Shown here in pieces: positions 16,541-31,406 of a DNA stretch of 64,000 nt (within the stretch, counting starts at the first letter, position 1; each line of letters opens with the position of its first letter). The DNA lies in NCBI GenBank assembly GCA_019744845.1, contig JAIETW010000002.1:69759-133758 (forward strand). Reading direction: 5' to 3'. The translations under genes were made by a program, and so were the position numbers. The notes below the pieces were generated by a model. The model was not told the origin of the DNA. It was given only the letters and a program-made list of their open reading frames with translations, and did not search any database. The DNA is from Patescibacteria group bacterium (GTDB lineage Bacteria > Patescibacteriota > Minisyncoccia > Phycocordibacterales > Phycocordibacteraceae).

Positions 16541-17185
16541 ATGCTTACGCTTACAGTTACGAAACGAGAGGAGACCGGCAAGCGCTCAAAGCGCCTTTTG
16601 AATGACGGATTCATGCCGGCAGTGGTTTATGGACCAAAGCAGGAGGCCACGGCAATCACCGTGCCACTTTCTGACTTTGTGAAGATGCTTAAGAAGGCAG
16701 GAGAGTCCTCAGTGATTGAGCTCTCAGGTCTCGGCGCATCAATGCAGGTGCTTGTGCACGAGGTAGACCGCGATCCAATTACGGACGCACCTCGCCACGC
16801 AGACTTCTATGCAATTGAGAAGGGTGCCAAGGTTGAAGTTGCGGTACCACTTACCTACGTTGGTGAGTCTCCAGCGGTGAAGGCAGGCGCAAACCTTGTG
16901 AAGGTGCTTCACGAGCTTGAGATTAAGGCGGATGCTGCAAACCTTCCTCATGACATTGAGGTAGACATCTCTGGTCTTGCTGCGATTGGTGATCAGGTTC
17001 TTGTATCTGACCTTACGATTCCTGCAGGTGTTGGAGTTGAGGTAGAGGCAGATCAGGTGGTTGCGGTCATCCAGGAGCTCACCGTTGAAGAGGAGGCACC
17101 AGTTGCCGGTCCTGACATGGCATCTATTGAAGTAGAGAAGAAAGGAAAGACTGAAGAGGAAGGAGGAGACGCCCCGAAGGAATAA
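16541..17185 (+). CDS. rplY: 50S ribosomal protein L25 (general stress protein Ctc form)
   Basis: TVTKREETGKRSKRLLNDGFMPAVVYG N-terminus and an acidic C-terminal extension. Confidence 0.85.
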   Translation: MLTLTVTKREETGKRSKRLLNDGFMPAVVYGPKQEATAITVPLSDFVKMLKKAGESSVIELSGLGASMQVLVHEVDRDPITDAPRHADFYAIEKGAKVEVAVPLTYVGESPAVKAGANLVKVLHELEIKADAANLPHDIEVDISGLAAIGDQVLVSDLTIPAGVGVEVEADQVVAVIQELTVEEEAPVAGPDMASIEVEKKGKTEEEGGDAPKE

Positions 17186-17197
17186 TCTTCATGAACA

Positions 17198-17220
17198 CGC
17201 CGGTCACACCGGCGTTTTTT
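17198..17220 (+). terminator. Rho-independent terminator after rplY
   Basis: CGCCGG-TCACA-CCGGCG stem-loop followed by TTTTTT. Confidence 0.6.
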
Positions 17221-17265
17221 GTAATCCAGACGACAAAAGGTCGTCTGTTATACTGAAAGACATAT

Positions 17266-18612
17266 ATGGCGTTTCGCGCTCTTTTCGGTGGCTTCCTCAT
17301 CGTTCTTGTCTTCGTGACGAGTGGCATATTTGTCGCACCCACAAGCGCCCAGGAACTTTCGGAGAGTGAGCGCGAAGAACTTGAAGAGGAGTATGACAAG
17401 CTTCAAGAAGAAATTGCACAATGGGAAAAGATACTTGCCGAGACTCGTGCGCAAAAAGGCACACTCCAGGGAGACGTGACGGCACTCAATGCGCAGATTC
17501 GCGAGGCGGAGGCCCAGATCAAAGCAAAGAACAATGCCATTTCACGTTTGGGTGGAGAAATTAAGCAGCGCAATACTCGGATTGGGGAACTGGAAACGAA
17601 GATTGGATCGGGGCAACAATCGCTTGCGGCGATGCTTCGTCGTCAGAATCAAGTAGATGATCTTACGCTGTTTGAGATTGCGCTTGCGACCGAGAATGCA
17701 TTCTCCCTTTTTGAAGACGTAGACAACATGATTTCCGTACAGATTGGACTCCATGAGGAGTTTGCCGAGCTTCGTGGTGTGAAAGCAGAAACGGAAGCAG
17801 AGCGAGAAGCACTTGCGGCACGACAGGATGCAGAGCTTGATGCACGCTACGTGGTGGAAACAAAGAAAGCCCAAGTTGCCAAAGATGAAGCAGAGAAGCA
17901 GCGACTTCTTGCAATTAAGGCAAACGAAGAGGCTGCATACAACCAAGTACTGGTGGAGCGTCAGGCACAGGCCGCGGCAATCCGTGCACGTTTGTTCCCA
18001 CTGCGCGATACGGAAGGAATTGAATTCGGGGACGCCGTTGCGTATGCACAGCAGGCGTCGGCAAAGACCGGAGTGCGTCCGGCACTTATTCTTGCCATCC
18101 TTTCGCAGGAGTCTGCGCTCGGCACAAATGTGGGTAACTGTTATGTCACCGATCTCACCACTGGAGACGGAAAGGGGAAGAATACTGGCACGCCATTTCT
18201 TGGGGTGATGAAAGTGCCGCGCGACACCGTACCGTTTGAGCGGATTACGACCGCGCTTGGAAAAGATTGGTCAACGACTCCCGTGTCATGTCCGCAGCCT
18301 GGTGGATACGGGGGAGCGATGGGTCCAACCCAGTTCATTCCTTCTACCTGGGAAATGTTTGAAGGACGCTTGAAGACTGCACTTGGAGTGTCAGCCACCA
18401 ACCCATGGAATGCAGGGCACGCCATTATGGCCACCGGTATTTATCTTGCAGATGTCGGTGCAAGTGCAGGAGGATACAGCGCCGAACATCGCGCTGCAGC
18501 GACCTACTATGCAGGATCAGGATGGGCCACACGCGGCCAGACCTACGCAAACTCGGTGATGGCAAAGGCAACCAAGTTCCAGGAAGATATTGATTTCCTC
18601 GCGGACAACTAA
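17266..18612 (+). CDS. Secreted coiled-coil protein with C-terminal lytic transglycosylase-like (SLT-type) domain
   Basis: Signal peptide, then ~230 aa of heptad-rich Glu/Lys/Ala sequence. The C-terminal region has ILSQESALG ... GAMGPTQFIPSTW, like SLT E-S ... GLMQ blocks. Confidence 0.6.
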   Translation: MAFRALFGGFLIVLVFVTSGIFVAPTSAQELSESEREELEEEYDKLQEEIAQWEKILAETRAQKGTLQGDVTALNAQIREAEAQIKAKNNAISRLGGEIKQRNTRIGELETKIGSGQQSLAAMLRRQNQVDDLTLFEIALATENAFSLFEDVDNMISVQIGLHEEFAELRGVKAETEAEREALAARQDAELDARYVVETKKAQVAKDEAEKQRLLAIKANEEAAYNQVLVERQAQAAAIRARLFPLRDTEGIEFGDAVAYAQQASAKTGVRPALILAILSQESALGTNVGNCYVTDLTTGDGKGKNTGTPFLGVMKVPRDTVPFERITTALGKDWSTTPVSCPQPGGYGGAMGPTQFIPSTWEMFEGRLKTALGVSATNPWNAGHAIMATGIYLADVGASAGGYSAEHRAAATYYAGSGWATRGQTYANSVMAKATKFQEDIDFLADN

Positions 18613-18669
18613 GAGTTATCCCCGTTATATACAAAATCGTAGAAAAATCCTGCGTACAATAGAAGGTAC

Positions 18670-19635
18670 ATGGAAAGTACCAAGCCGAATTCGTTGGTAG
18701 TGGCTGCGGGCGTGATTATTCTAATTGTGCTTCTCGTTCTTGCCGTTGCCTATCTGCCGTTTTTGAGTGGAGTGAAAAGTTGGTGGGATGTGGTGACTGC
18801 GCCTGCTGCAGTAAAAGAAGTGGGATACCTTGGACTTGAAGACGGGAAGGGAGTGGTCTACACCGTCGGCATGTTCGGCATTCACACACGTTCATTTGAA
18901 GGAATGTCCGTCATAGACTATGTGGCGAAGGGGTCATCTCAAGTGGCAGTACTTAAATCAGGAGATGTTTACGATGTGTACGACGTCTCATCTTCTGAGC
19001 CGGTGAAGCTTACGACTGATGGACGCCAGAAAGACTCACTAGATATTTCATCTGATGGATTGAAGGTGGTGTATGGCGTGAAAGTACGCGCAACCACATT
19101 TGCGGGAGCGGGCGAGAATGATCAGATATACAATCTTCCTGATTGGGAAGTGCATGAGATAGATATGCTCTCTCGCACGTCTCGTGTTGTTGGGCCAGGC
19201 AATCACCCTCGCTTTTATGCAGACGGGATTCTTTACCCAGCCCCTGCAGGATTCGTGTACCGTGTAGCGGGTGACAATGGCATCTTTGATGCGCTTGATA
19301 CCTGGAGCATCTATCCCGATGTGATGGCGTATCGTGTCCTTCGTCTTCCGGTACTGACGGACGCAGGGCTCATGGCATTCCCAAGTGTCGCCACCTCTGC
19401 CTATGATGCAGTATCGGTAACTTCAGTGGCACCACTCGCATTTGCAGCAGCACCCGACGCACCGATTGACGTACCGCCAGGCACCTACGACCTTATGATT
19501 CGTGGAGATCATGAGTATGTCCTTCTTCAAGGTGCGAGGGGAGCCGTAGTCGCGAAACTTACTGACGGAGCTATGAGGCAGGTCTTCACCTTCCCTGCGT
19601 CCTATGCCCCGCAGCGGTTCGCTCACATTCGTTAG
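18670..19635 (+). CDS. Membrane-anchored hypothetical protein (possible beta-propeller-like ectodomain)
   Basis: N-terminal TM (LVVAAGVIILIVLLVLAVAYL). DISSDGLKVVY-type segments. Sits directly upstream of a giant secreted protein. Confidence 0.5.
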   Translation: MESTKPNSLVVAAGVIILIVLLVLAVAYLPFLSGVKSWWDVVTAPAAVKEVGYLGLEDGKGVVYTVGMFGIHTRSFEGMSVIDYVAKGSSQVAVLKSGDVYDVYDVSSSEPVKLTTDGRQKDSLDISSDGLKVVYGVKVRATTFAGAGENDQIYNLPDWEVHEIDMLSRTSRVVGPGNHPRFYADGILYPAPAGFVYRVAGDNGIFDALDTWSIYPDVMAYRVLRLPVLTDAGLMAFPSVATSAYDAVSVTSVAPLAFAAAPDAPIDVPPGTYDLMIRGDHEYVLLQGARGAVVAKLTDGAMRQVFTFPASYAPQRFAHIR

Positions 19636-19637
19636 TT

Positions 19638-21470
19638 ATGAACTTATCTATGAAAACTTCACACCTCTCAGTTGCTGGGCTCGTGTTTCTCGCCGTTGTG
19701 GCGATCGTGCAGTTCTCTCCGACACAGCTCGCGATGGCGCAGTGTGGCGGGGCGGGGAGCTTCAGTGGATTTAGTGGGCCAAGCTACATCGTGATAGATG
19801 GGATTATGGGTGATGTGTATTACTCGGGGAATATGGGTGGAGGGGTGGAGTGGGATCCAGTATTCCATGCCATGTTTGGAGATACTGTTAATCAACTTCC
19901 TTCAAAAGACTTCTTCAGCTTTCTCTTCCCAGAGAATATCTTTGCGCAGTGTGGGAACATCAACCCTCCTCCCTCATCTCCATCCGTATCGTTGACCGCA
20001 ACCCCCGGATCAATTAATTCTGGAGGAAACTCAGTACTCACCTGGAGCGGACAAAATGTGGTGTCTTGTACGGGGACTGGTTTCTCCACGGGAGGTAATA
20101 CCTCTGGTTCCGTGAACGTATCCCCTGATGACACCACGACCTACAGCATTACGTGTTCCACCACCGGCGGCGGATCAGGGAACTGGGAACTCAGTGACTC
20201 ATACACGACTGATTACTCGTGTCCTTTGTCGAGCGACAGAGTGGATCGTCCACACCGCCATGTCCCAGACTGTCCGACAGGCTCACCTGAAGGAAATGCG
20301 TGTAGCCCAGGTGGCACCAGTTGTAAGGTGAACTATGCGTCGGGGTGTAACGTAATTTCCGATATTTATTCATGTGAGGCAGATGGTGGTGTAGGTCAAA
20401 CAGTCAGTGATACCGCAACCGTTACCGTGAGTGCGTGTACGCCTTCGTACAACTCCTCACGGTGGTACACCGGTGGTACAGAAGTCGCAGTCTCCTCTCT
20501 TGAGATGGGAAATAGCGCAGCTGACTGTCGCACAATAACTCCAGGCAATATTGAGTACACATCCTGGAATCGTCAGGTGCAGTACCAAGACGGAGGTGTT
20601 GCTACGTATGATCCAGTGCGGACCATGTGTTGGTACTACAATGGTGCCACAGGCACGGAAAGCAAGCCAGGACAGAGTCAGGGTGATTGGTACTTCCACT
20701 ACGACTCAGGAAGTACGTGTACAGTTCCGGCAGTACCGCAGTGTTCAAACGGCGCGGACGATGATGGCGACGGGTACGTTGACTATACGGAGGACGGAGG
20801 ATGTGAGGACGGACTTGATGACGATGAAATTGGCGATACGCTGCCGCAGTGTAGCGATGGACAAGATAACAACAGCGCAGGCGGATCAGATTATCCAAAC
20901 GATCCATCATGTACCAGTGCAGATGATGATAGCGAAGATGGAGTGACTGCAGGCGTATCTTGTTCTGTAGATTCTTCATCAGTTAGCGTGGGCGGTACGA
21001 CCACCTATCGTGCAACGGCAAATAATGGCGCAAGCGCACCATTTACTTGGACCCCTTCGGGTCAGACACTTTGTACCGGAGGTGCAAACAACACCTGTAC
21101 CTTCCCAGGCACTGGTCCGTACACCATGTCAGTACGCGCGCAGGGTGCCACGAGCCCTGCCTCGTGTCCGATTGTGACTGCAGGATGTGCAGGCCCAACC
21201 GAAGTCTCTATCACTGCAAATGGAGAAGGGGATGATGTGCGTGTGAAAGATGGGGCTGCGGCGCTCATTGAATGGGAGGTTACGACGGCAGCAGCAAGCT
21301 GTACCGTGACGGAGAACGGTGCACTTCTCACGACGCTTACACCAAACGCATGTAATGCGACTGGACAGATGAGTCGCACGATTAGTACGCAGACTACCTA
21401 CCTTCTCACCTGTGGAAGTGAGACGGACCTAGTGATCGTGAACGTAGATACGAGCCTGCTTGAGTTCTAG
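19638..21470 (+). CDS. Large secreted Cys-rich protein with MopE-like C-x-D-G-x-D-N-D repeats and conserved C-terminal module (paralog A)
   Basis: Signal peptide. CSNGADDDGDGYVDY ... CSDGQDNNSAGGSDYPNDPSC repeats. The C-terminal ~180 aa are highly similar to the C-terminus of 23563-25755. Confidence 0.6.
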   Translation: MNLSMKTSHLSVAGLVFLAVVAIVQFSPTQLAMAQCGGAGSFSGFSGPSYIVIDGIMGDVYYSGNMGGGVEWDPVFHAMFGDTVNQLPSKDFFSFLFPENIFAQCGNINPPPSSPSVSLTATPGSINSGGNSVLTWSGQNVVSCTGTGFSTGGNTSGSVNVSPDDTTTYSITCSTTGGGSGNWELSDSYTTDYSCPLSSDRVDRPHRHVPDCPTGSPEGNACSPGGTSCKVNYASGCNVISDIYSCEADGGVGQTVSDTATVTVSACTPSYNSSRWYTGGTEVAVSSLEMGNSAADCRTITPGNIEYTSWNRQVQYQDGGVATYDPVRTMCWYYNGATGTESKPGQSQGDWYFHYDSGSTCTVPAVPQCSNGADDDGDGYVDYTEDGGCEDGLDDDEIGDTLPQCSDGQDNNSAGGSDYPNDPSCTSADDDSEDGVTAGVSCSVDSSSVSVGGTTTYRATANNGASAPFTWTPSGQTLCTGGANNTCTFPGTGPYTMSVRAQGATSPASCPIVTAGCAGPTEVSITANGEGDDVRVKDGAAALIEWEVTTAAASCTVTENGALLTTLTPNACNATGQMSRTISTQTTYLLTCGSETDLVIVNVDTSLLEF

Positions 21471-22510
21471 CGTTCGTACTGAGAGAGTCCCGTACGCAAG
21501 AGTGCGTGCGGGATTTTCTCGTTCTCAAACAGCCATCTGTTCACCGTCTCAACTGCGTCAGCAGGGAGATGCGTCTCAAGAAGAGTAAAGAACATCTGCT
21601 CTGGCTGGTTGTGAAGCGTGGCAAAAAGATCGGCCACCGTTACATCCGCGCCATAGATCTCGAGCAATCCTTCAATCGCGACCATCACGAGTGGTCCAAG
21701 GATGTAATGGTCGTACTCTACTTCTCTGTAGGGAGGCATTGGTTCAGGGTACGCATGGTGGAGCTCATAGAGTGTGGAGAAGCGTGCGTGTCTCCGCTCG
21801 TTTGAAGGGAGTAGGGCAAGTTCAAGCCAACTTGCCTCAAGCTCTTGTATATCGGTACTGGAGAGAGGTGGTTGTTCGGGAAGCGGATAACTAAAGCGAT
21901 TATAGAGATGTCCCACCGCGTGGATGAAGAGCTCTTCTCCTCGTGGATTTTCAGGAGGAAGAATCAAATAACTCACGCGCTCATTGGGGTCTGGATAGAT
22001 ACTTCCTTCCTCAGTGTGAATGAATCCGAGCGCTGCTGTGACTACGACCGTGTGTGCGATTGCTTCTTCATGATCATAGAAGGCACCAATGCGTTCAAAG
22101 GCATGCCGCACCATCGCTTCATAGGCACCAGGATTTTCAATTTCCGTTGGGATAAGAAGAGAGACGGTGTAGGCACTGTCGGAGAAAGTGAGTGTGGTGG
22201 ATGCAAATGCGTCAGTTCGGATCATGACTGCGGTTTGTCCGGGAAGAAACTCAGCCCAGTCCGCGCCCTCCGCTTGAGCGCCTACCGCCATCCAACCCGA
22301 AGGGACGCACACCCGTTCTCCGGCCGTAATTGAGCTCATAAGTACGGTGCTATACCAGGTGCGATAGCCATGAGCACCAGTCTCAGGGCGCGCAGAGGGG
22401 AACGGTTCACAGGAGGAAGGGGATGCGACGACCGTGAAAACGACTCCGAGAAAAAGAACTGCAGGGATCAAAAATACACGCATGGCCTTTAGTATACGCC
22501 CGCTATACAC
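21467..22510 (-). CDS. Secreted hypothetical protein
   Basis: Signal peptide (MRVFLIPAVLFLGVVFTVVASP), 347 aa. Convergent with, and overlapping the stop of, the upstream large gene. Confidence 0.5.
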   Translation of the reverse strand: MYSGRILKAMRVFLIPAVLFLGVVFTVVASPSSCEPFPSARPETGAHGYRTWYSTVLMSSITAGERVCVPSGWMAVGAQAEGADWAEFLPGQTAVMIRTDAFASTTLTFSDSAYTVSLLIPTEIENPGAYEAMVRHAFERIGAFYDHEEAIAHTVVVTAALGFIHTEEGSIYPDPNERVSYLILPPENPRGEELFIHAVGHLYNRFSYPLPEQPPLSSTDIQELEASWLELALLPSNERRHARFSTLYELHHAYPEPMPPYREVEYDHYILGPLVMVAIEGLLEIYGADVTVADLFATLHNQPEQMFFTLLETHLPADAVETVNRWLFENEKIPHALLRTGLSQYER

Positions 22511-22555
22511 ATAGCTTGGCCCTCAGAGAGGGAACAGGCACTACAATAGATACAT

Positions 22556-23551
22556 ATGACGCGAACCCGTATCATCGTGCTCACGGTACTCATTATTATA
22601 ATTCTCGGCGTGCTTGGGTACCTCGGCCTCATGTTCTTTGGTTACCAGCGTGCGGAGAATGCGCTCCCAGAGCAGGGAAGTGAGATATTGTTTGTGGATC
22701 GTGGAGTGGGCGAGCGCTATGTCATGGAAGGCAAGGCACTGGTTCTCGCCATGCCTGAACCACTCCCTGACGGCATTGTCGTTCATGAGAGTGTGCCATC
22801 TCCACTGGTTGCGGGTGAGTCAGTCATTCTTGCGACTGCACCGGGCGTGCCAGGGATGATTGCGGGTATCGCACACACCGATGGTGATGTCACTCTTCTT
22901 GCTGCAGGAGGTACCAGCAAGTCTAATCTCCTTGTGCGTGAGGACGGCCGTGCAATTTTTGTCACGAATCCTTCGGTTGTAATTGAAGAGGCGTCTGCGG
23001 GTGAAGAGGGGGCTGAGGATACGGTGGAAGAGACCGGGTCTGCATCAGAGCCATCCTCTCCCGCACTTGCGGCACAGGCTCCCGCATCTACTCCTTCGCA
23101 GCTCATCTCTGTGCACATTGGCACGGGTACCATCACCGCGCTCGGTGTAGGCCATGGACCGCGCCTACTTGCGGACGGATCAATACTCGCGCTTTCTAAG
23201 CAGGGTGTGGTGAAAATAAATCCAGTGACGGGTGATCGCTCCCTCATCCTTCCGTACGAAAGTACGGATACTCCTGCGGGCGGCATCTCACCATCAGGAA
23301 CAGTGGTGGCGCTTTCAGGTGCTGACGTGGGACAGCTTGAGTTCTATCGCATTAATCCAAGTGGCGCTGCCGCACCAGTGCATCTTGGATTCGTAGAGTT
23401 TGAAGGCGATATTACTCGCGTTGCCTTTACTGATGACGAACATCTCTTCTTGCGCACCAATGTACAAGTCGCACGACTGTACCAGATACCAACCGAATCG
23501 TTGCCAGTTGCGACACCACTGGCGATTCTCTTAGTCGCACAACCTGAATAA
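22556..23551 (+). CDS. Membrane-anchored hypothetical protein
   Basis: N-terminal TM (IIVLTVLIIIILGVLGYLGLMFF) and an acidic Ala/Ser-rich linker. Same position relative to a giant secreted protein as 18670-19635. Confidence 0.5.
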   Translation: MTRTRIIVLTVLIIIILGVLGYLGLMFFGYQRAENALPEQGSEILFVDRGVGERYVMEGKALVLAMPEPLPDGIVVHESVPSPLVAGESVILATAPGVPGMIAGIAHTDGDVTLLAAGGTSKSNLLVREDGRAIFVTNPSVVIEEASAGEEGAEDTVEETGSASEPSSPALAAQAPASTPSQLISVHIGTGTITALGVGHGPRLLADGSILALSKQGVVKINPVTGDRSLILPYESTDTPAGGISPSGTVVALSGADVGQLEFYRINPSGAAAPVHLGFVEFEGDITRVAFTDDEHLFLRTNVQVARLYQIPTESLPVATPLAILLVAQPE

Positions 23552-23562
23552 CATTCTCGCGT

Positions 23563-25755
23563 ATGACACATACATCTCTCATGCAGACAGTTCTAGGGAA
23601 GGCACTAATGGCGAGTGTGCTCTTCGCGGTCCTGCTCACCTTTATTGCTCCAATGACAGCACACGCTATTTTCCGTGAATCCGATCAGGAAGGCGGAGGA
23701 GGGGATTGGGGTGGCGGAGGAGGAGGTGGGGGTGGCGGTACGACCGCTGAGTGTGCCGACGGCGTTGATAACGACGGCAACGGAGTGACCGACTATCCAA
23801 GCGATCTCGGATGTACCAGTTACTCTGACACGACCGAGTCTGGGTATACGGTTGCCACACAATGTGCCGACGGCGTCGATAACGACAGGAACGGACTTAT
23901 AGATACGAACGATCCTGGCTGTTCTTCGGGGTCAGATAGTTCTGAGTCTGGATACACTACGCAATGTTCAGATGGTTCTGACAACGACGGGAACGGATAC
24001 AGAGATATTGGCGACCCAGGATGTTCCTCACTCTCAGACACGTCTGAGTCAGGATACGTTCGCCCACCTGCACCTCCTCCAGGTGTTGAAGTATATAAAA
24101 CACAGAGTAAACGTGACTACTACGTGAAAGTACAGCCAGACCAGCTTGCCAATGGTGGATTAGATGAGACGTCTGCGCACGGCTACCCTACGTATTCAAC
24201 TGGGCAAGCATCGCCAACAGGTAATCGTATTTGTTATCTCTACGATCCAACCGCCTTTATTACCGAGTGGTCGCTCGGAGGATTTAGTTCCCCAGGAAAC
24301 AACAGCATGGCTGCGTGGAATCCCTCAACGGGGAAATGGTACCGGGGGTCTGCAGGCAGCTTCGGCAACCTGCGCTATAACTATTTGACATGTAAGACGA
24401 ACGCAACCCCCGACACGTCACTCACTGCAACTGCAAACGGTACGACAGGGTCAAGCCTCTCCGTTACTTCAGGTACACCGGTTACCCTTACCTGGCTCTC
24501 ACAATGGGGGCAGACTCGTAAAGGAAGCTTCACAGCACAAAACTACAGCCTCACCACAACGACTGCGGGGTATTGGCAAACGGTAACTAATTATATCTGT
24601 GGCTATGATGGTGGAGGCGGTGGAGGAGACTCTGACTTCTTTTACGACTACGTGGCTTCTGGTCCTCAAAACACCCTAACGGCACAAGCGGGTGGTTCTT
24701 GTTGGGAAACCAGCACCGTGTGGGTAGCAGGATCAACAACGTATCGTCCATACGGTGGTACGACGGTCGTCACGCCGACCCAAACGACGACGTATACCTA
24801 CACAGGTACAAATGCGAACGGTTCTTCAAGTGCAAGCGTTACGGTGACCGTAACTGGAGAAGGTACGCTCTCCTCCAGTACATGTTCAGTAGATCCTATT
24901 GTTGCTGGAACAGGAGATAGTGTTACCTGGACGGCAGCGCCAGTTGGTGGCACTGGCACGTATAGCTACGTGTGGTCAGGAACCGACAGTTTGAGTGGTA
25001 CCACACAATCTGTGGTGAAGTCGTATAGCTCAGAAGGCGCGAAGACTGGAAGCGTACAGATCACCTCAGGTACTGAAGTTGCAAATATCAGTTGTACAAC
25101 CAGCCTCACCATCTCTAATGCTCCTGCATGTAATAACGGCGTGGATGATGATGGGGCAGGAGGAGCAGACTATCCTGCCGATCCATCCTGCAACAGTCTC
25201 ACCGATGATTCGGAAGACGGAAACGTAGTAGGCGCATCAGTGTCCTGTACGGTTGACTCTGCAGTCGTGACCGCTGGTACACAGACGACCTATCGGGTAA
25301 CCCCGGCAGGAGGAGCAACTGCACCGTACACATGGACCCCATCAAGTCAGACTGGTTGTACGGGAGGAGCAAATAACACGTGTACCTTTACCAACCCAGG
25401 TCCGTACACAATGTCAGTCCAGGCATCTAATAGTGCACCGGTGTCCTGTCCGGTCGTGACGGTGGGTTGTGTGGGTACTCCTGAAGTGTCCCTTACCGCG
25501 AATGGAGAAGCAGAAGACACTCGTGTAAACGTCGGAGAGGCAGCAACGATTGCATGGGAAGCAGAGGGAATCTCCGCTACCTCTTGTACGCTCTATGAGA
25601 ACGAGGTGGCGATCCAGACGCTGACGCCAAATGCCTGTAACGTGACTGGTTCTGTGGCACGCACGATTGATACCCAGATGGTCTATACCCTCAACTGTGA
25701 TGGGGAGACCTCAACGGTGATCGTGAACATAGACGCGGGTCCTGAGGAGTTCTAG
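23563..25755 (+). CDS. Large secreted protein with poly-Gly tract, three tandem MopE-like putative metal-binding repeats and conserved C-terminal module (paralog B)
   Basis: Signal peptide. GGGGDWGGGGGGGGGG. Repeats CADGVDNDGNGVTDYPSDLGCTS, CADGVDNDRNGLIDTNDPGCSS and CSDGSDNDGNGYRDIGDPGCSS. The C-terminus is shared with 19638-21470. Confidence 0.65.
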   Translation: MTHTSLMQTVLGKALMASVLFAVLLTFIAPMTAHAIFRESDQEGGGGDWGGGGGGGGGGTTAECADGVDNDGNGVTDYPSDLGCTSYSDTTESGYTVATQCADGVDNDRNGLIDTNDPGCSSGSDSSESGYTTQCSDGSDNDGNGYRDIGDPGCSSLSDTSESGYVRPPAPPPGVEVYKTQSKRDYYVKVQPDQLANGGLDETSAHGYPTYSTGQASPTGNRICYLYDPTAFITEWSLGGFSSPGNNSMAAWNPSTGKWYRGSAGSFGNLRYNYLTCKTNATPDTSLTATANGTTGSSLSVTSGTPVTLTWLSQWGQTRKGSFTAQNYSLTTTTAGYWQTVTNYICGYDGGGGGGDSDFFYDYVASGPQNTLTAQAGGSCWETSTVWVAGSTTYRPYGGTTVVTPTQTTTYTYTGTNANGSSSASVTVTVTGEGTLSSSTCSVDPIVAGTGDSVTWTAAPVGGTGTYSYVWSGTDSLSGTTQSVVKSYSSEGAKTGSVQITSGTEVANISCTTSLTISNAPACNNGVDDDGAGGADYPADPSCNSLTDDSEDGNVVGASVSCTVDSAVVTAGTQTTYRVTPAGGATAPYTWTPSSQTGCTGGANNTCTFTNPGPYTMSVQASNSAPVSCPVVTVGCVGTPEVSLTANGEAEDTRVNVGEAATIAWEAEGISATSCTLYENEVAIQTLTPNACNVTGSVARTIDTQMVYTLNCDGETSTVIVNIDAGPEEF

Positions 25756-25797
25756 GCAATTGCATAGCCCTCTGGTGCGTGGTAAAGTGCCCGGATT

Positions 25798-26046
25798 ATG
25801 AAGGCAGACATTCATCCAGCAGACTACCGTACCGTCCTTTTTGAGGATATCTCCTCTGGTGCTCAGTTCCTTATCGGGTCTACGATCCGCACTGATGAGA
25901 CTGGTACCTACGAAGGGAAGGAGTACCCAAAGGTATTGATTGAAATCTCCTCAAAGTCCCATCCGTTCTACACTGGTGAGGATCGCACCCTTGATAAGAC
26001 CGGTCGCGTGGAGAAGTTCAAGCAGCGCGCACTCAAGAAGAAATAA
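25798..26046 (+). CDS. rpmE2: 50S ribosomal protein L31 type B (Cys-less)
   Basis: MKADIHPADYRTVLF ... SSKSHPFYTG ... GRVEKFKQR with no CxxC zinc ribbon. Confidence 0.85.
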   Translation: MKADIHPADYRTVLFEDISSGAQFLIGSTIRTDETGTYEGKEYPKVLIEISSKSHPFYTGEDRTLDKTGRVEKFKQRALKKK

Positions 26047-26060
26047 CGACGTTCATGAAA

Positions 26061-26083
26061 AGCCCCGCTCCGCGGGGTTTTTC
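26061..26083 (+). terminator. Rho-independent terminator after rpmE2
   Basis: CCCCGC-loop-GCGGGG stem followed by TTTTT. Confidence 0.65.
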
Positions 26084-26099
26084 GCGTTATCATTGATCC

Positions 26100-28417: not shown

Positions 28418-28834
28418 ATGATCTACCTCGCGATATTCGTCATCGCGCTCGTGCTGTTCTTTGGGTTCCTTTTCTTGACCAGTGTAGAACAGAAGAAGGG
28501 AGCTCGCGTGTTGTCAGGAATACGCAGTGCACTTGATGCGCGCGTTGCTCGGGCGACCGGAGTGGTTGCACACGTAGACTTCAGTGCCTTCATGTGGAAT
28601 CTTTCTAAGGATGTAGCGGGACGTGTGGTACATGATATTGCGCACATCTCACTCATTGCAGTGCGTTCGCTTGAACGTCTGCTCACGCGGCTCGTGCGCT
28701 TTATCCGCAGTCGGGTGCACGCACCACAGACCGTGGAAGGGAAGCGCTCTGCATTCGTAGAAACGATCACCTACTTCAAGAAAACACTCCGTCGCTCCAA
28801 GGAGACGACAGAACAGGAAGAACGTGTAAAATAG
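28418..28834 (+). CDS. Hypothetical membrane protein
   Basis: N-terminal TM helix. Coding periodicity is supported only by ORF length and its tight fit between tsf and the tRNA. Confidence 0.45.
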   Translation: MIYLAIFVIALVLFFGFLFLTSVEQKKGARVLSGIRSALDARVARATGVVAHVDFSAFMWNLSKDVAGRVVHDIAHISLIAVRSLERLLTRLVRFIRSRVHAPQTVEGKRSAFVETITYFKKTLRRSKETTEQEERVK

Positions 28835-28842
28835 GGCACATT

Positions 28843-28918
28843 GCCGAGATAGCTCAGTTGGTAGAGCAACGCACTTGTAATGCGTAGGTCGCGAGTTCGA
28901 ATCTCGCTCTCGGCTCCA
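28843..28918 (+). tRNA. tRNA-Thr (anticodon UGU), CCA encoded
   Basis: Folded by eye as a cloverleaf. Acceptor GCCGAGA/TCTCGGC, D-arm GCTC-AGTTGGTA-GAGC, anticodon stem ACGCA/TGCGT with loop CTTGTAA, T-arm GCGAG-TTCGAAT-CTCGC, then T-CCA; 76 nt. Confidence 0.9.
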
Positions 28919-28923
28919 AAGGA

Positions 28924-29445
28924 TTAGGTGCCACGCATTGAAACGGTCAGCACGAGAAGTGCGAATACAAGGAAGACGAGACTCGTGGTAAGGATGAGAA
29001 ATAGGAGCCGCTTTGGTTGGAGAGACATGGGTTCAATAGTGATGGAAGACGTTAGACGATGTGCGACAAGGCGTCCAAGTAAGGTACCCATCGCTACACC
29101 TGCACCCACAAGTGCAAGGACTCTTGTCCCTATTTCAGAGGCGCCCAGGAAAGGACCGAGGAGTGCGAGGAGCTCAAGCACGACAAGTATAACGACAACG
29201 AGAGGAATGTTGTCTCCAAAGGAGCGGAGCATTCGTGCGCGGGCATAAAGGAAATATCCGAGCGTGGCACAGAAAAGAAAGAGGAGTAGCTCATATTGCG
29301 TACGAGTATTTATTGCAACAATTGCGACTGCAAGTGCAGTAGTGAGGTATGTGTGTGTACCTACGTGAACCAGCACGGATTTCACCTCTTTTATTTGCGA
29401 AGACAAATCACCCATAGATCTAGTATACGTCTCACGTGGACTCAC
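28924..29445 (-). CDS. Hypothetical multi-pass membrane protein
   Basis: About four hydrophobic helices; no recognisable family motif. Confidence 0.45.
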   Translation of the reverse strand: MSPRETYTRSMGDLSSQIKEVKSVLVHVGTHTYLTTALAVAIVAINTRTQYELLLFLFCATLGYFLYARARMLRSFGDNIPLVVVILVVLELLALLGPFLGASEIGTRVLALVGAGVAMGTLLGRLVAHRLTSSITIEPMSLQPKRLLFLILTTSLVFLVFALLVLTVSMRGT

Positions 29446-29462
29446 CTAGTAAACGTTGTTTA

Positions 29463-30149
29463 CTACTCATCAGATGTTGAAGTTGCGGTTGAGCTTGCAG
29501 GAACAAGGAGTCCTTCAGGGAAGGAATCTTCAAGGTCCTCAAGGGTCGTGAAGCCGTATGCGCGGGTGCCCTGGATCACGAATGCAGGAAGTTCTGCGTT
29601 TACCTTCTCTACCGCGATAAGGGTCTTGAGTGCCGCGAGGTCTAGGTTGTAGTCAAAGGAGTACACACGAAGGTCAGGGTACGTCTGACGAAGGTAGGAG
29701 AGGGCGTAGCCGGCACGATCACAGTCCTCACACTGTCCTGGGACGTTGCTGTAGAAGTAGAGAGCAACCACTGGTTCAAGATCACAAGTGCGGGCAAGGC
29801 GCTTGGTGAGAAGGTAGTCGCGAATCTGAAGAAGGGTGTAGCGTTCCTTAAGGCGAAGCACTTCAGGGTCGGTCGCGCCAAGGCGCTCCTCAGCAAAGGC
29901 AAGACGGTCACCAAGACCTCCAAGCTCAGTGGTGAATGCATTGCTGCCTTCAAGGCCTTCACATGGCGCTTCTGCAAGCAGTGCGTACTGCGTTTCAATA
30001 GAAAGGGTGTCGGTGGCAAGCTGGTCTTCAATGGCGCGAAGTTCAGCCACGCGCTGCTCGTTCAAGAAGTTTACTGCGTACAAGACGGTCGCAATGATGG
30101 CGACGGTAATGAGAAGTGCGATGAGTGCATTACGAAGGTAGAAAGGCAT
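29463..30149 (-). CDS. Membrane-anchored thioredoxin-fold-like protein with CxxC (possible DsbA-like thiol-disulfide oxidoreductase)
   Basis: N-terminal TM, then LYFYSNVPGQCEDCDRAG, a beta-strand-then-CxxC arrangement typical of the thioredoxin fold. Tentative. Confidence 0.45.
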   Translation of the reverse strand: MPFYLRNALIALLITVAIIATVLYAVNFLNEQRVAELRAIEDQLATDTLSIETQYALLAEAPCEGLEGSNAFTTELGGLGDRLAFAEERLGATDPEVLRLKERYTLLQIRDYLLTKRLARTCDLEPVVALYFYSNVPGQCEDCDRAGYALSYLRQTYPDLRVYSFDYNLDLAALKTLIAVEKVNAELPAFVIQGTRAYGFTTLEDLEDSFPEGLLVPASSTATSTSDE

Positions 30150-30155
30150 GAAGGA

Positions 30156-31406
30156 TTAGCGCCAGGAACGGCGGGTAGAGGTAGCGACGTCAGCAACAGA
30201 GCGCACGAGCCAGAGTGGTGCGATAAGACCATACACGAACATATAGCCCAAGATTCCGACGCCAAGATTTGCAGGGGTGTGAGAGATCTTGCGACCCACG
30301 AGTACGAAAAGGATGCTGCCCACCACTGCCACGACCGCAAGAAGGGTGAAGAGGGTGAGAGGGAAGTAGAACCACTCAATGGCATTAAGTTTTGGCACGA
30401 TGGTGCTTACGGTGTAATCAAGCGGAACGCCTGACGCAATCAAGAAGGTGTTTACTCCTTCTTTGACGAGCTGATAGATCACAATACCGAACATAAGGAT
30501 ACCGCCGATGATAGCGAAGAATCCAAGAGGAAGGACGATAAGGCCGAGTGCACCATAACGAGGGTTACCCACGAGGCCACGATACTCGTAGAGCATGTTG
30601 CGGAGGAAGCCGGTGGTCCAGCGGGTGCGCTGCTTCACGAGAGAGGGAACGGAGCGTGGAGTAGCAGTCTCTACGCGTGCCTTTGGAGCGCTATCAATCT
30701 TGTAGCCTGCCTGCTGCATACGGAGTGCCATCTCCATGTCTTCGGTGTTGTGTCCGTGGCGGAACCCACCAATCTTTTCAATGATGTCGCGGCGGTAGAG
30801 AGAGAATGGTCCTGGTGTCACGTAGATGCCGTTCACTGCCGCAAGAATGTGACGAAGGGCAATACCCATGATGTATTCGGCATTCTGCATCCGCTCAAGA
30901 ATGTTCTTTGGTTTGTGGACTGACATGGCGGCGGTAGTAGCGCCCACCTCAGGATCATCAAAACAGGAGATCATCTCACGAAGTGCATCTGTATGTACGA
31001 AAGAGTCTGCATCAAGACAGCCCACAATCTCGGCGTCTTTTGCGGCGTCTATACCCGCGTTAAGCGCAACGTGCTTTCCACCATTTTCCTGATGAATGAC
31101 GGTGACCTGTGCGTAGTGCGCAAAGCTGTCCATCACTTTTCCAGTCGCATCAGTAGAGCCATCGTTCACGAGAATGATCTGGAGCTTCTCCTTTGGATAC
31201 TCAAGGGCGAGAAGGGACTCCACAGTGCCGCCGACCGTCTTCTCTTCGTTGAAGCAGGGCACAATCATCGCAACCATGGGGGTCTTCTTTGAGATCGCAC
31301 GATCTCGTGCGTCTTTGGCAGGCTGGGACAGGAAGGTTACGAGCAAAAAGGCCTCAAAGTAGATGGCCGCAAAGAGAAAAGGATACGCGAGTACCGTAAG
31401 ATCCAT
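30156..31406 (-). CDS. Processive family-2 glycosyltransferase (PgaC/NodC/cellulose-synthase-like) with C-terminal TM bundle
   Basis: IVPCFNEE ... ILVNDGSTDAT, a DAD-type motif, the QRTRW (Q-x-x-R-W) motif, and four C-terminal TM helices. Confidence 0.8.
   Translation of the reverse strand: MDLTVLAYPFLFAAIYFEAFLLVTFLSQPAKDARDRAISKKTPMVAMIVPCFNEEKTVGGTVESLLALEYPKEKLQIILVNDGSTDATGKVMDSFAHYAQVTVIHQENGGKHVALNAGIDAAKDAEIVGCLDADSFVHTDALREMISCFDDPEVGATTAAMSVHKPKNILERMQNAEYIMGIALRHILAAVNGIYVTPGPFSLYRRDIIEKIGGFRHGHNTEDMEMALRMQQAGYKIDSAPKARVETATPRSVPSLVKQRTRWTTGFLRNMLYEYRGLVGNPRYGALGLIVLPLGFFAIIGGILMFGIVIYQLVKEGVNTFLIASGVPLDYTVSTIVPKLNAIEWFYFPLTLFTLLAVVAVVGSILFVLVGRKISHTPANLGVGILGYMFVYGLIAPLWLVRSVADVATSTRRSWR

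Follow-up and report, generated by a model that had tools for sequence, protein, structure and literature searches.

What do two secreted proteins with the same C-terminal end, each encoded directly behind a gene for a membrane-anchored protein, do for the bacterium that carries them? The question is raised by a stretch of 64,000 nucleotides (nt) from a Patescibacteria group bacterium (assembly GCA_019744845.1, contig JAIETW010000002.1, positions 69,759 to 133,758 of the forward strand), which we refer to as the window, and in which an earlier note made from the letters alone had proposed a duplicated two-gene module at 18670-25755. Patescibacteria (the Candidate Phyla Radiation, CPR) comprise a large share of the diversity of bacteria and seem to live attached to the cells of hosts; to our knowledge almost nothing is known of their surface outside Saccharibacteria, and we know of no attachment determinants in Paceibacterota. 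The five open reading frames (ORFs) of the proposal are present as described, and the duplication proved fuller than had been claimed, because searches with jackhmmer and hhalign identified the two anchored proteins (A1 and A2), and not only the two secreted ones (G1 and G2), as homologs, if remote ones. The two-gene unit probably serves these tiny, host-dependent bacteria for display or attachment at the cell surface. The secreted members end in a module of two immunoglobulin-like (Ig-like) domains, here called the handle, which defines an undescribed and unannotated family so far seen only in Patescibacteria. The features concerned are listed below, with lengths in amino acids (aa).

18670..19635, + strand: A1, membrane-anchored protein, 321 aa (ORF listing)
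19638..21470, + strand: G1, secreted protein, 610 aa (ORF listing; family hidden Markov model, HMM)
20742..20912, + strand: acidic Cys-bounded repeats of G1, aa 369-389 and 405-425 (motif scan; DNA repeat family D1)
20931..21467, + strand: C-terminal double-Ig module of G1, aa 432-610, ending ...VIVNVDTSLLEF (BLASTP; family HMM, 174.8 bits)
21467..22510, - strand: C, conserved ORF, 347 aa (ORF listing; ortholog in the related locus L029)
22556..23551, + strand: A2, membrane-anchored protein, 331 aa (ORF listing; A1-seeded jackhmmer, hhalign, L029 ortholog 41% identical)
23563..25755, + strand: G2, secreted protein, 730 aa (ORF listing; ortholog P0014 / L029 G710, 52% identity over 679 aa)
23752..24024, + strand: acidic repeats 1-3 of G2, aa 64-84, 101-120, and 135-154 (NCBIfam NF033662; motif scan)
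25129..25191, + strand: fourth acidic repeat of G2, aa 523-543 (motif scan)
25210..25752, + strand: C-terminal double-Ig module of G2, aa 550-730, ending ...VIVNIDAGPEEF

G1 and G2 share a C-terminus but not a body

A BlastP comparison of G1 with G2 (with compositional adjustment) aligned their 211 C-terminal residues at 59% identity with only 4 gapped positions and an E-value of 1e-70, in agreement with the common C-terminus that the note had described. We checked the possibility that low complexity was responsible for this similarity; the Cys residues keep their positions, which makes it position-specific rather than a product of composition. The N-terminal regions had been called divergent, and the bodies of the two proteins are indeed unrelated, except for acidic C-x-DG-x-D-N-D repeats common to both. 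Secretion of both proteins, which had been assumed, is supported by their signal-peptide-like N-termini, of the Sec type in G1 (aa 1-34, ending in AMA before QCGG) and ending in AHA before IFRES in G2 (aa 1-35). Of the description "giant Cys-rich", the second half holds, as G1 has 26 Cys and G2 has 22, while the first overstates the size of proteins of 610 and 730 residues.

The order of elements in G1 is signal peptide, N-terminal domain, Ig-like domain, Cys-rich region, acidic repeats, and C-terminal module; that in G2 is signal peptide, Gly-rich linker, three acidic repeats, a conserved beta-rich body, a PKD-like Ig domain, the fourth acidic repeat, and the C-terminal module. The acidic repeats have a counterpart in the NCBIfam model NF033662 (acidic double-disulfide repeat), which G2 passes in four stretches (72.4 bits versus a cutoff of 41) and below which G1 remains (18.3 bits versus 41). 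Compared by name alone, that family implies four Cys in each unit where the G1 and G2 units carry two, and the repeat is a mere accessory element of the G proteins. Acidic units 1 and 2 of G2 (23752-23784 and 23863-23895) have 91% DNA identity, far above that of the remaining gene, which suggests a recent internal tandem duplication. No Pfam match to G1 or G2 reached threshold, including those to CARDB and PKD, and no wall-binding domain (SLH, LysM, or PGBD) was detected in either with Pfam or NCBIfam. Searches of PDB sequences with A1, A2, C, and G1 returned nothing usable, and the same was true of Pfam and NCBIfam.

The handle is a family of its own

A word-indexed search of 5.8 billion proteins with the handle (query 25108-25752) returned one marginal match and missed even G1. 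When HMMER was run exhaustively with a profile made from the G1 and G2 modules, it found, counted as cluster representatives, 231 members at E<=1e-3 and 134 at E<=1e-10. The proteins concerned range from 114 to 1787 residues in length, and in nearly all of them the match reaches the last residue, the module occupying ~175 residues at the exact C-terminus. Its tail has the family-wide consensus V-N-[VIL]-[IVL]-P-x-F-x-E-F-COOH, with conservation among 150 representatives of 90% for V(-10), 98% for N(-9), 83% for P(-6), 61% for F(-4), 95% for E(-2), and 92% for F(-1); EF are the last two residues in 134 of the 150. G1 ends in LLEF and G2 in PEEF, both without the I-P-x-F portion. They belong to a sub-clade that has kept V-N-V and the terminal E-F, has lost I-P-x-F, and carries as extras an additional Cys pair (CTGGANNTC) and an acidic repeat immediately upstream.

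The structure predicted for the module consists of two Ig-like beta-sandwiches (predicted local distance difference test score, 94.5) and a less ordered tail, which agrees with the Ig- or fibronectin-like beta modules that had been anticipated. A fold search with it gave generic Ig-like matches only, PDB 1l0q being among them. Six Cys of the module, located in or between the two sandwiches, are invariant or at least 90% conserved family-wide, and may be paired in disulfides. The first handle domain had sub-threshold PKD matches in Pfam; no Pfam or NCBIfam model covers the module, and our search of the published literature found no description of the family. Database names of its members are "hypothetical protein" or "CARDB domain-containing protein", and upstream of the module other members have PKD and fn3 domains as well as CARDB, the last of these well above the Pfam threshold in many members. 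A late transmembrane-like (TM-like) segment was seen in 3 of 150 relatives, remote from the protein end; in G1 and G2 the hydrophobic segment is N-terminal only. The occurrence of the module in other CPR genomes, which had been put forward as something to look for, was evident: all of the loci from species-representative genomes (22/22) came from metagenome-assembled genomes (MAGs) of Patescibacteria, mostly Paceibacterota/Parcubacteria.

The anchored partners are remote homologs with a propeller fold

A1 and A2 each have a single N-terminal hydrophobic segment and no Cys. In A1 the TM segment lies at ~aa 8-30, and the TM helix (aa 8-43) runs straight into an ectodomain with the fold of a six-bladed TolB-like beta-propeller. 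The N-terminal flanks of the TM segments are rich in Lys and Arg across the A family, and the N-terminus would thus be expected to lie inside. Pfam PD40 had no match in A1 or A2 (a relative in locus L014 scored 20.6 bits versus a threshold of 20.9), and a TadE-like match at the N-terminus of A2 (15.2 versus 22.9 bits) was dismissed as a match to a hydrophobic helix. Both proteins are already in the NCBI database, A1 being identical in sequence to K2Y00_03635 (Patescibacteria MAG) and A2 to K2Y00_03650; a contig index had no record of the exact G2 sequence. A2 and its L029 ortholog have an acidic, Ser/Pro/Ala-rich low-complexity insert within the propeller region (A2 aa ~140-185, 22970-23110), which A1 is without.

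The note had considered the anchored partners not obviously homologous, and at the pairwise level this is so: BlastP found no similarity between A1 and A2 (best E=0.16), and their alignment identity is ~15%. At the profile level they are homologous through intermediates. Seeded with A1 and run on the local locus set, jackhmmer reached A2 at 58.6 bits, and searches seeded with A1 and with A2 converged on the same upstream genes (in L007, L012, L014, L015, L017, L018, L020, and L023). With hhalign, an intermediate clade matched the A1 clade with a probability of 99.3% (E=1e-20, 236 columns) and the A2 clade with a probability of 96.5% (E=8e-10, 161 columns). Because of these links we regard A1 and A2 as diverged branches of a single family, and take the two-gene unit to have been duplicated as a whole.

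A and G genes are adjacent, and sometimes fused

Gene-order maps were made with HMMs for A, the G handle, C, L25, L31, and a lytic transglycosylase gene (SLT). In these maps a G gene directly followed the A gene in 17/17 assessable cases, all in distinct organisms; the count includes loci found through A and not through G (L002, L004, L031, L032, and L035). Within the window the A1 stop codon is 2 nt from the G1 ATG and the A2 stop codon 11 nt from the G2 ATG, junctions that suggest co-transcription and possibly translational coupling.

We also identified six natural A-G fusions (P0013, P0056, P0106, P0108, P0136, and a 1027-residue ORF at 3904-6987 of L025, in the same chromosomal slot as the window genes), all with an N-terminal TM segment and an ~120-aa A-like domain, then a G body, then an EF tail. 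At each fusion junction A-[HY]-A stands immediately before [YW]-[TS]-Y, the place at which the signal peptide of the unfused P0012 ends (AHA before YTYSS). The junctional A-[HY]-A looks like a relic of a G signal peptide, and would fit an origin of the fusions by read-through from A into a neighbouring G gene. Given the A-then-G adjacency and the natural fusions, we infer that A and G form a functional unit. The note had suggested that the anchored partner is a tether or processing factor; with this strict adjacency, the 2-11 nt junctions, and the fusions, that of a tether or assembly factor is the best supported of the roles considered for it.

A conserved slot with variable contents

The recurrent gene order around these units is L25 - SLT - [(A)-G]x1-2 - L31 - RF1 - S2 - EF-Ts. 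The slot (window 16541-26046; loci L002-L032), conserved throughout Paceibacterota, contains a single G gene or a pair, A being present or absent, and in some cases further genes, the L25, SLT, L31, RF1, S2, and EF-Ts flanks being fixed; G copy number varies even between close relatives. The two genes that delimit the variable part in the window are:

17266..18612, + strand: SLT, secreted protein combining a coiled coil with a lytic transglycosylase; conserved gene upstream of the units, at which the variable slot opens (Pfam SLT_2, 34 bits versus a cutoff of 24.3; adjoins L25 in most related loci)
25798..26046, + strand: gene for ribosomal protein L31, which forms the downstream edge of the slot and is conserved there (ORF listing; gene-order maps)

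Strong terminator-like hairpins occur only at 17197-17215 (after the L25 gene) and 26056-26084 (after the L31 gene), where they bracket the SLT-to-L31 block. Base composition is flat along the window, and insertion of the second module by a mobile element was rejected, as there are no flanking repeats, no tRNA at the junctions, and no change in composition. PADLOC and PHROGs scans of the locus returned no matches, so that it does not belong to the known defence systems or phage modules. The gene-order maps and the window annotation show no transporter or metallochaperone gene linked to the units.

Two of the related loci have an Lnt-like gene (CN_hydrolase, weak LNT_N) in the slot, beside a lone 479-aa G of the CARDB type (L002, 5627-7075, - strand; L004, 6957-8345, - strand); there is none at that position in the window. 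Downstream of the slot, synteny at 28418-31406 is kept in most related loci and comprises an ~136-aa TM protein, then a minus-strand ~228-aa gene with no family match and a 416-aa GT2 (chitin/cellulose-synthase-like) gene, then PheS and PheT. The remainder of the window is housekeeping (DnaE, SMC, GyrB, RNase R, ThrRS, and PheT) plus the GT2 glycosyltransferase.

Between the two units lies ORF C, on the opposite strand. C and A2 are divergent, with ~20-45 nt separating their start codons in the window and L029, and in L029, too, the C ortholog (1439-2503, - strand) immediately precedes the A2 ortholog and is transcribed away from it. C accompanies the A2-G2 unit. In its product an N-terminal hydrophobic segment precedes S-C-E-P, and there is an invariant EELF[IL]HA..HLYNRF motif, the H-x3-H of which hints at a candidate metal site. 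No match to C was found in Pfam, NCBIfam, or PDB sequences. G1 and C are convergent, their stop codons overlap by 4 nt (21467-21470), and there is no terminator-like hairpin between them.

The duplication is ancient

L029, the locus of the G2 ortholog P0014, has the order SLT - C' - A2' - G2' - A1' - G1', with identities to the window proteins of 69% (SLT), 41% (A2), 52% (G2), 46% (A1), 36% (G1), and 42-44% (C). As each gene has its own L029 ortholog and the order alone differs, both cassettes and C predate the split of the window organism and L029. The closer relatives L002 (A1 79% identical) and L004 (A1 48% identical) have the A1-G1 pair only, and G1 orthologs directly follow A1 orthologs in L002, L004, and L029. 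The handle regions of G1 and G2 have 61% DNA identity with a longest identical run of 12 nt, and on these grounds, together with the separate L029 orthologs, we rejected a recent duplication or gene conversion in the window. Duplication of the two-gene unit is ancient, and the locus is therefore not the recently diversified one it had been taken for: the separate L029 orthologs of its A, G, and C proteins are only 36-52% identical to them.

Handles tend to cluster by lineage and not by body orthology. The handle of G2 is 79% identical to that of the G1 ortholog in L002, as against 49% to that of its own L029 ortholog, and the median handle identity is 55% for pairs within a locus versus 37% between loci. 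In three of the four loci with one A and two G genes (L004, L015, and L017) the two handles have 79-84% protein identity and ~75% DNA identity with no long identical tracts, and the bodies differ; handle pairs from loci with two A genes or none (window, L029, L018, L008, L011, and L013) are 40-61% identical (Mann-Whitney p=0.02, without correction for phylogeny). This suggests constraint at the protein level from a common binding partner, a lead rather than a result, against which it counts that the pattern was recognized post hoc, that numbers are small, and that L002 is an exception.

What the unit may do

We give somewhat better than even chances to the explanation that G is a surface protein, exported by Sec, which its cognate membrane-anchored propeller holds or assembles, i.e., that the unit serves tethering and display. 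From the homology relations, folds, gene linkage, fusions, conserved slot, and age of the duplication we infer a surface location, physical binding between A and some face of G, and a contribution to attachment or to the structure of the envelope. G would be exported by Sec as a rod of beta-sandwich domains (Ig-like and PKD-like; CARDB in relatives) with acidic Cys-bounded repeats, and like every G would end in the handle, a pair of Ig-like domains with a flexible tail that nearly always finishes in E-F-COOH. A would be a single-pass membrane protein with its N-terminus inside and the predicted six-bladed TolB-like propeller as its ectodomain; co-expressed with its own G, it would hold or assemble that G at the outer face of the membrane, and the variable G body would project from the cell, where it would serve attachment or the structure of the envelope. 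The handle, its E-F tail being free, may be a docking element common to all G paralogs, the reader of which would be A or another envelope component.

Several observations sit poorly with this explanation. About half of the G genes are without an adjacent upstream A, from which it follows that A is not required by every family member, at least in cis. The fusions retain the C-terminal handle though they are already anchored through the A TM helix, so the role of the handle is not simply to bind A in order to be anchored. The divergence of A follows the G body as much as the handle (~15% identity for A1/A2 versus 60% for the G1/G2 handles), and the fold matches are to very common folds. Finally, the direct hhalign comparison of the A1 and A2 clades is weak (P=0.009, probability 4.6%), the homology of A1 and A2 thereby depending on the intermediates.

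The common occurrence of A-less G genes that keep the handle, and the persistence of the handle in the fusions, would suit a different arrangement, in which A is a dedicated assembly or chaperone factor whose propeller transiently takes G after Sec and aids its folding or wall crossing, with G then fixed elsewhere (cell wall or S-layer) via the handle. The adjacent SLT suggests wall passage, and six-bladed TolB- and YWTD-type propellers serve as protein-interaction platforms, as A would in this role. The six independent covalent A-G fusions argue instead for a stable association, however, and neither G1 nor G2 has an SLH, LysM, or PGBD domain with which to bind a wall, so that we consider a purely transient A unlikely. 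We are slightly more doubtful that G forms an S-layer or other envelope lattice, with the handle as its lattice-forming or oligomerisation element and A as a membrane pedestal. The conserved core-genome position is as expected for such a structure, as is the presence on all paralogs of the same handle, kept similar within some genomes; the archaeal S-layer protein 1l0q pairs a propeller with PKD domains, and S-layers have been reported in Patescibacteria (bioRxiv 10.1101/2024.05.28.596244). Yet the fast turnover of bodies and variable G copy number suit variable adhesins better, and searches of Pfam, NCBIfam, and PDB sequences revealed no resemblance to known S-layer families.

The metal-capture function that the earlier note offered as an option drew on the many Cys and the acidic C-x-DG-x-DND repeats, by which G proteins would bind metals; it has become very improbable, since no metal-binding family was matched in Pfam or NCBIfam, the six conserved Cys of the module sit in or between beta-sandwiches, the more distant L004 orthologs keep the module without the clade-specific extra Cys, and the linked genes include no transporter or metallochaperone. 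We give even less credence to A and G being independent neighbours whose common C-terminus reflects ordinary shuffling of Ig domains. The promiscuity of Ig-like domains and the many G genes without A would fit this, but the 17/17 A-then-G adjacency extends to loci found through A, fusions of the two exist, both pairs are intact in L029 despite its rearranged order, and the tail is invariant at the exact C-terminus. Display of G by a cognate propeller thus remains our preferred explanation. A more far-reaching version of it, which we put forward tentatively and think less likely to be right than wrong, is that the handle and its V-N-V-I-P-x-F-x-E-F-COOH tail could be an unrecognised surface-anchoring or sorting signal of Patescibacteria, read by the propeller or another envelope receptor and marking fast-evolving surface proteins, the L25-SLT-...-L31 slot then being a host- or substrate-specificity island of Paceibacterota.

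These proposals can now be tested on a family of secreted Ig-domain proteins that is widespread, has no annotation, and can be diagnosed by its C-terminal signature, on its cognate membrane-anchored propeller partner, and on a fixed chromosomal slot in which the number and type of genes vary between relatives. The questions raised are which of the proteins decorate the cell, whether the EF tail is a targeting element, and whether variation of the slot corresponds to host range. For annotation, the handle offers a simple marker for proteins now named "hypothetical" or "CARDB domain-containing".

Comparison with known systems

The six-bladed PD40 beta-propeller fold of A is also that of TolB, with which A has 8-10% sequence identity. 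A is nevertheless not TolB: it is without the N-terminal alpha/beta domain, it has its own TM anchor where TolB is a soluble periplasmic protein, and the tol-pal context is missing, with no tolQ, tolR, tolA, or pal nearby and L25, SLT, G, L31, RF1, S2, and EF-Ts as neighbours instead. By analogy, A may be likened to a docking propeller of the TolB or YWTD type.

The C-terminal domain (CTD) of type IX secretion system (T9SS) cargo in Bacteroidota is likewise a beta-sandwich, conserved at the very C-terminal end of many surface proteins; these are exported by Sec, have multiple domains, are otherwise unrelated, and occur several to a genome. The likeness is one of analogy only, as the G handle has two domains and an E-F-COOH tail. 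We rejected identity of the handle with the T9SS CTD for want of a match to any CTD model (TIGR04183 and TIGR04131 were absent from an NCBIfam scan of G1/G2 at E<=1, and there was no CTD match in Pfam), and no T9SS genes were seen in the window or the retrieved loci. Sortase, exosortase, and archaeosortase signals (LPXTG, PEP-CTERM, PGF-CTERM, and PEF-CTERM) are also short conserved C-terminal motifs that mark a set of surface proteins, but there a TM helix and a basic tail come after the motif, whereas G ends at E-F with no hydrophobic segment; lacking the terminal TM helix and basic tail, and with no NCBIfam model match, the handle was rejected as a signal of this type. Substrates of type 1 secretion (RTX-like) lack an N-terminal signal peptide and carry instead a C-terminal signal, together with GGxGxD repeats. 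G1 and G2 were rejected as such substrates for their signal-peptide-like N-termini, their many Cys, and the absence of an RTX model match in Pfam and NCBIfam, and SLH anchoring was rejected because neither has an SLH domain.

The bodies of the G proteins resemble Ig-repeat adhesins (the Big domains of intimin/invasin, and CARDB and PKD proteins), from which G differs in having no beta-barrel anchor or lectin tip; the handle and the propeller partner, in turn, are absent from the adhesin families. In 1l0q (tandem YVTN propeller plus PKD) the propeller and PKD/Ig domains are combined in a single surface protein, as they are in the A-G fusions. A hypervariable Ig-domain gene module, its variable locus centred on a large Ig-domain protein, is described for Thermococcales (PMC8416519). 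Paceibacteria are reported to express highly signal-peptide proteins with Ig-like and PKD folds (PMC10936435), which may possibly include members of the handle family. Taken as a kind of system, the A-G units would be most comparable to surface proteins that carry a conserved C-terminal targeting module and are served by a membrane partner.

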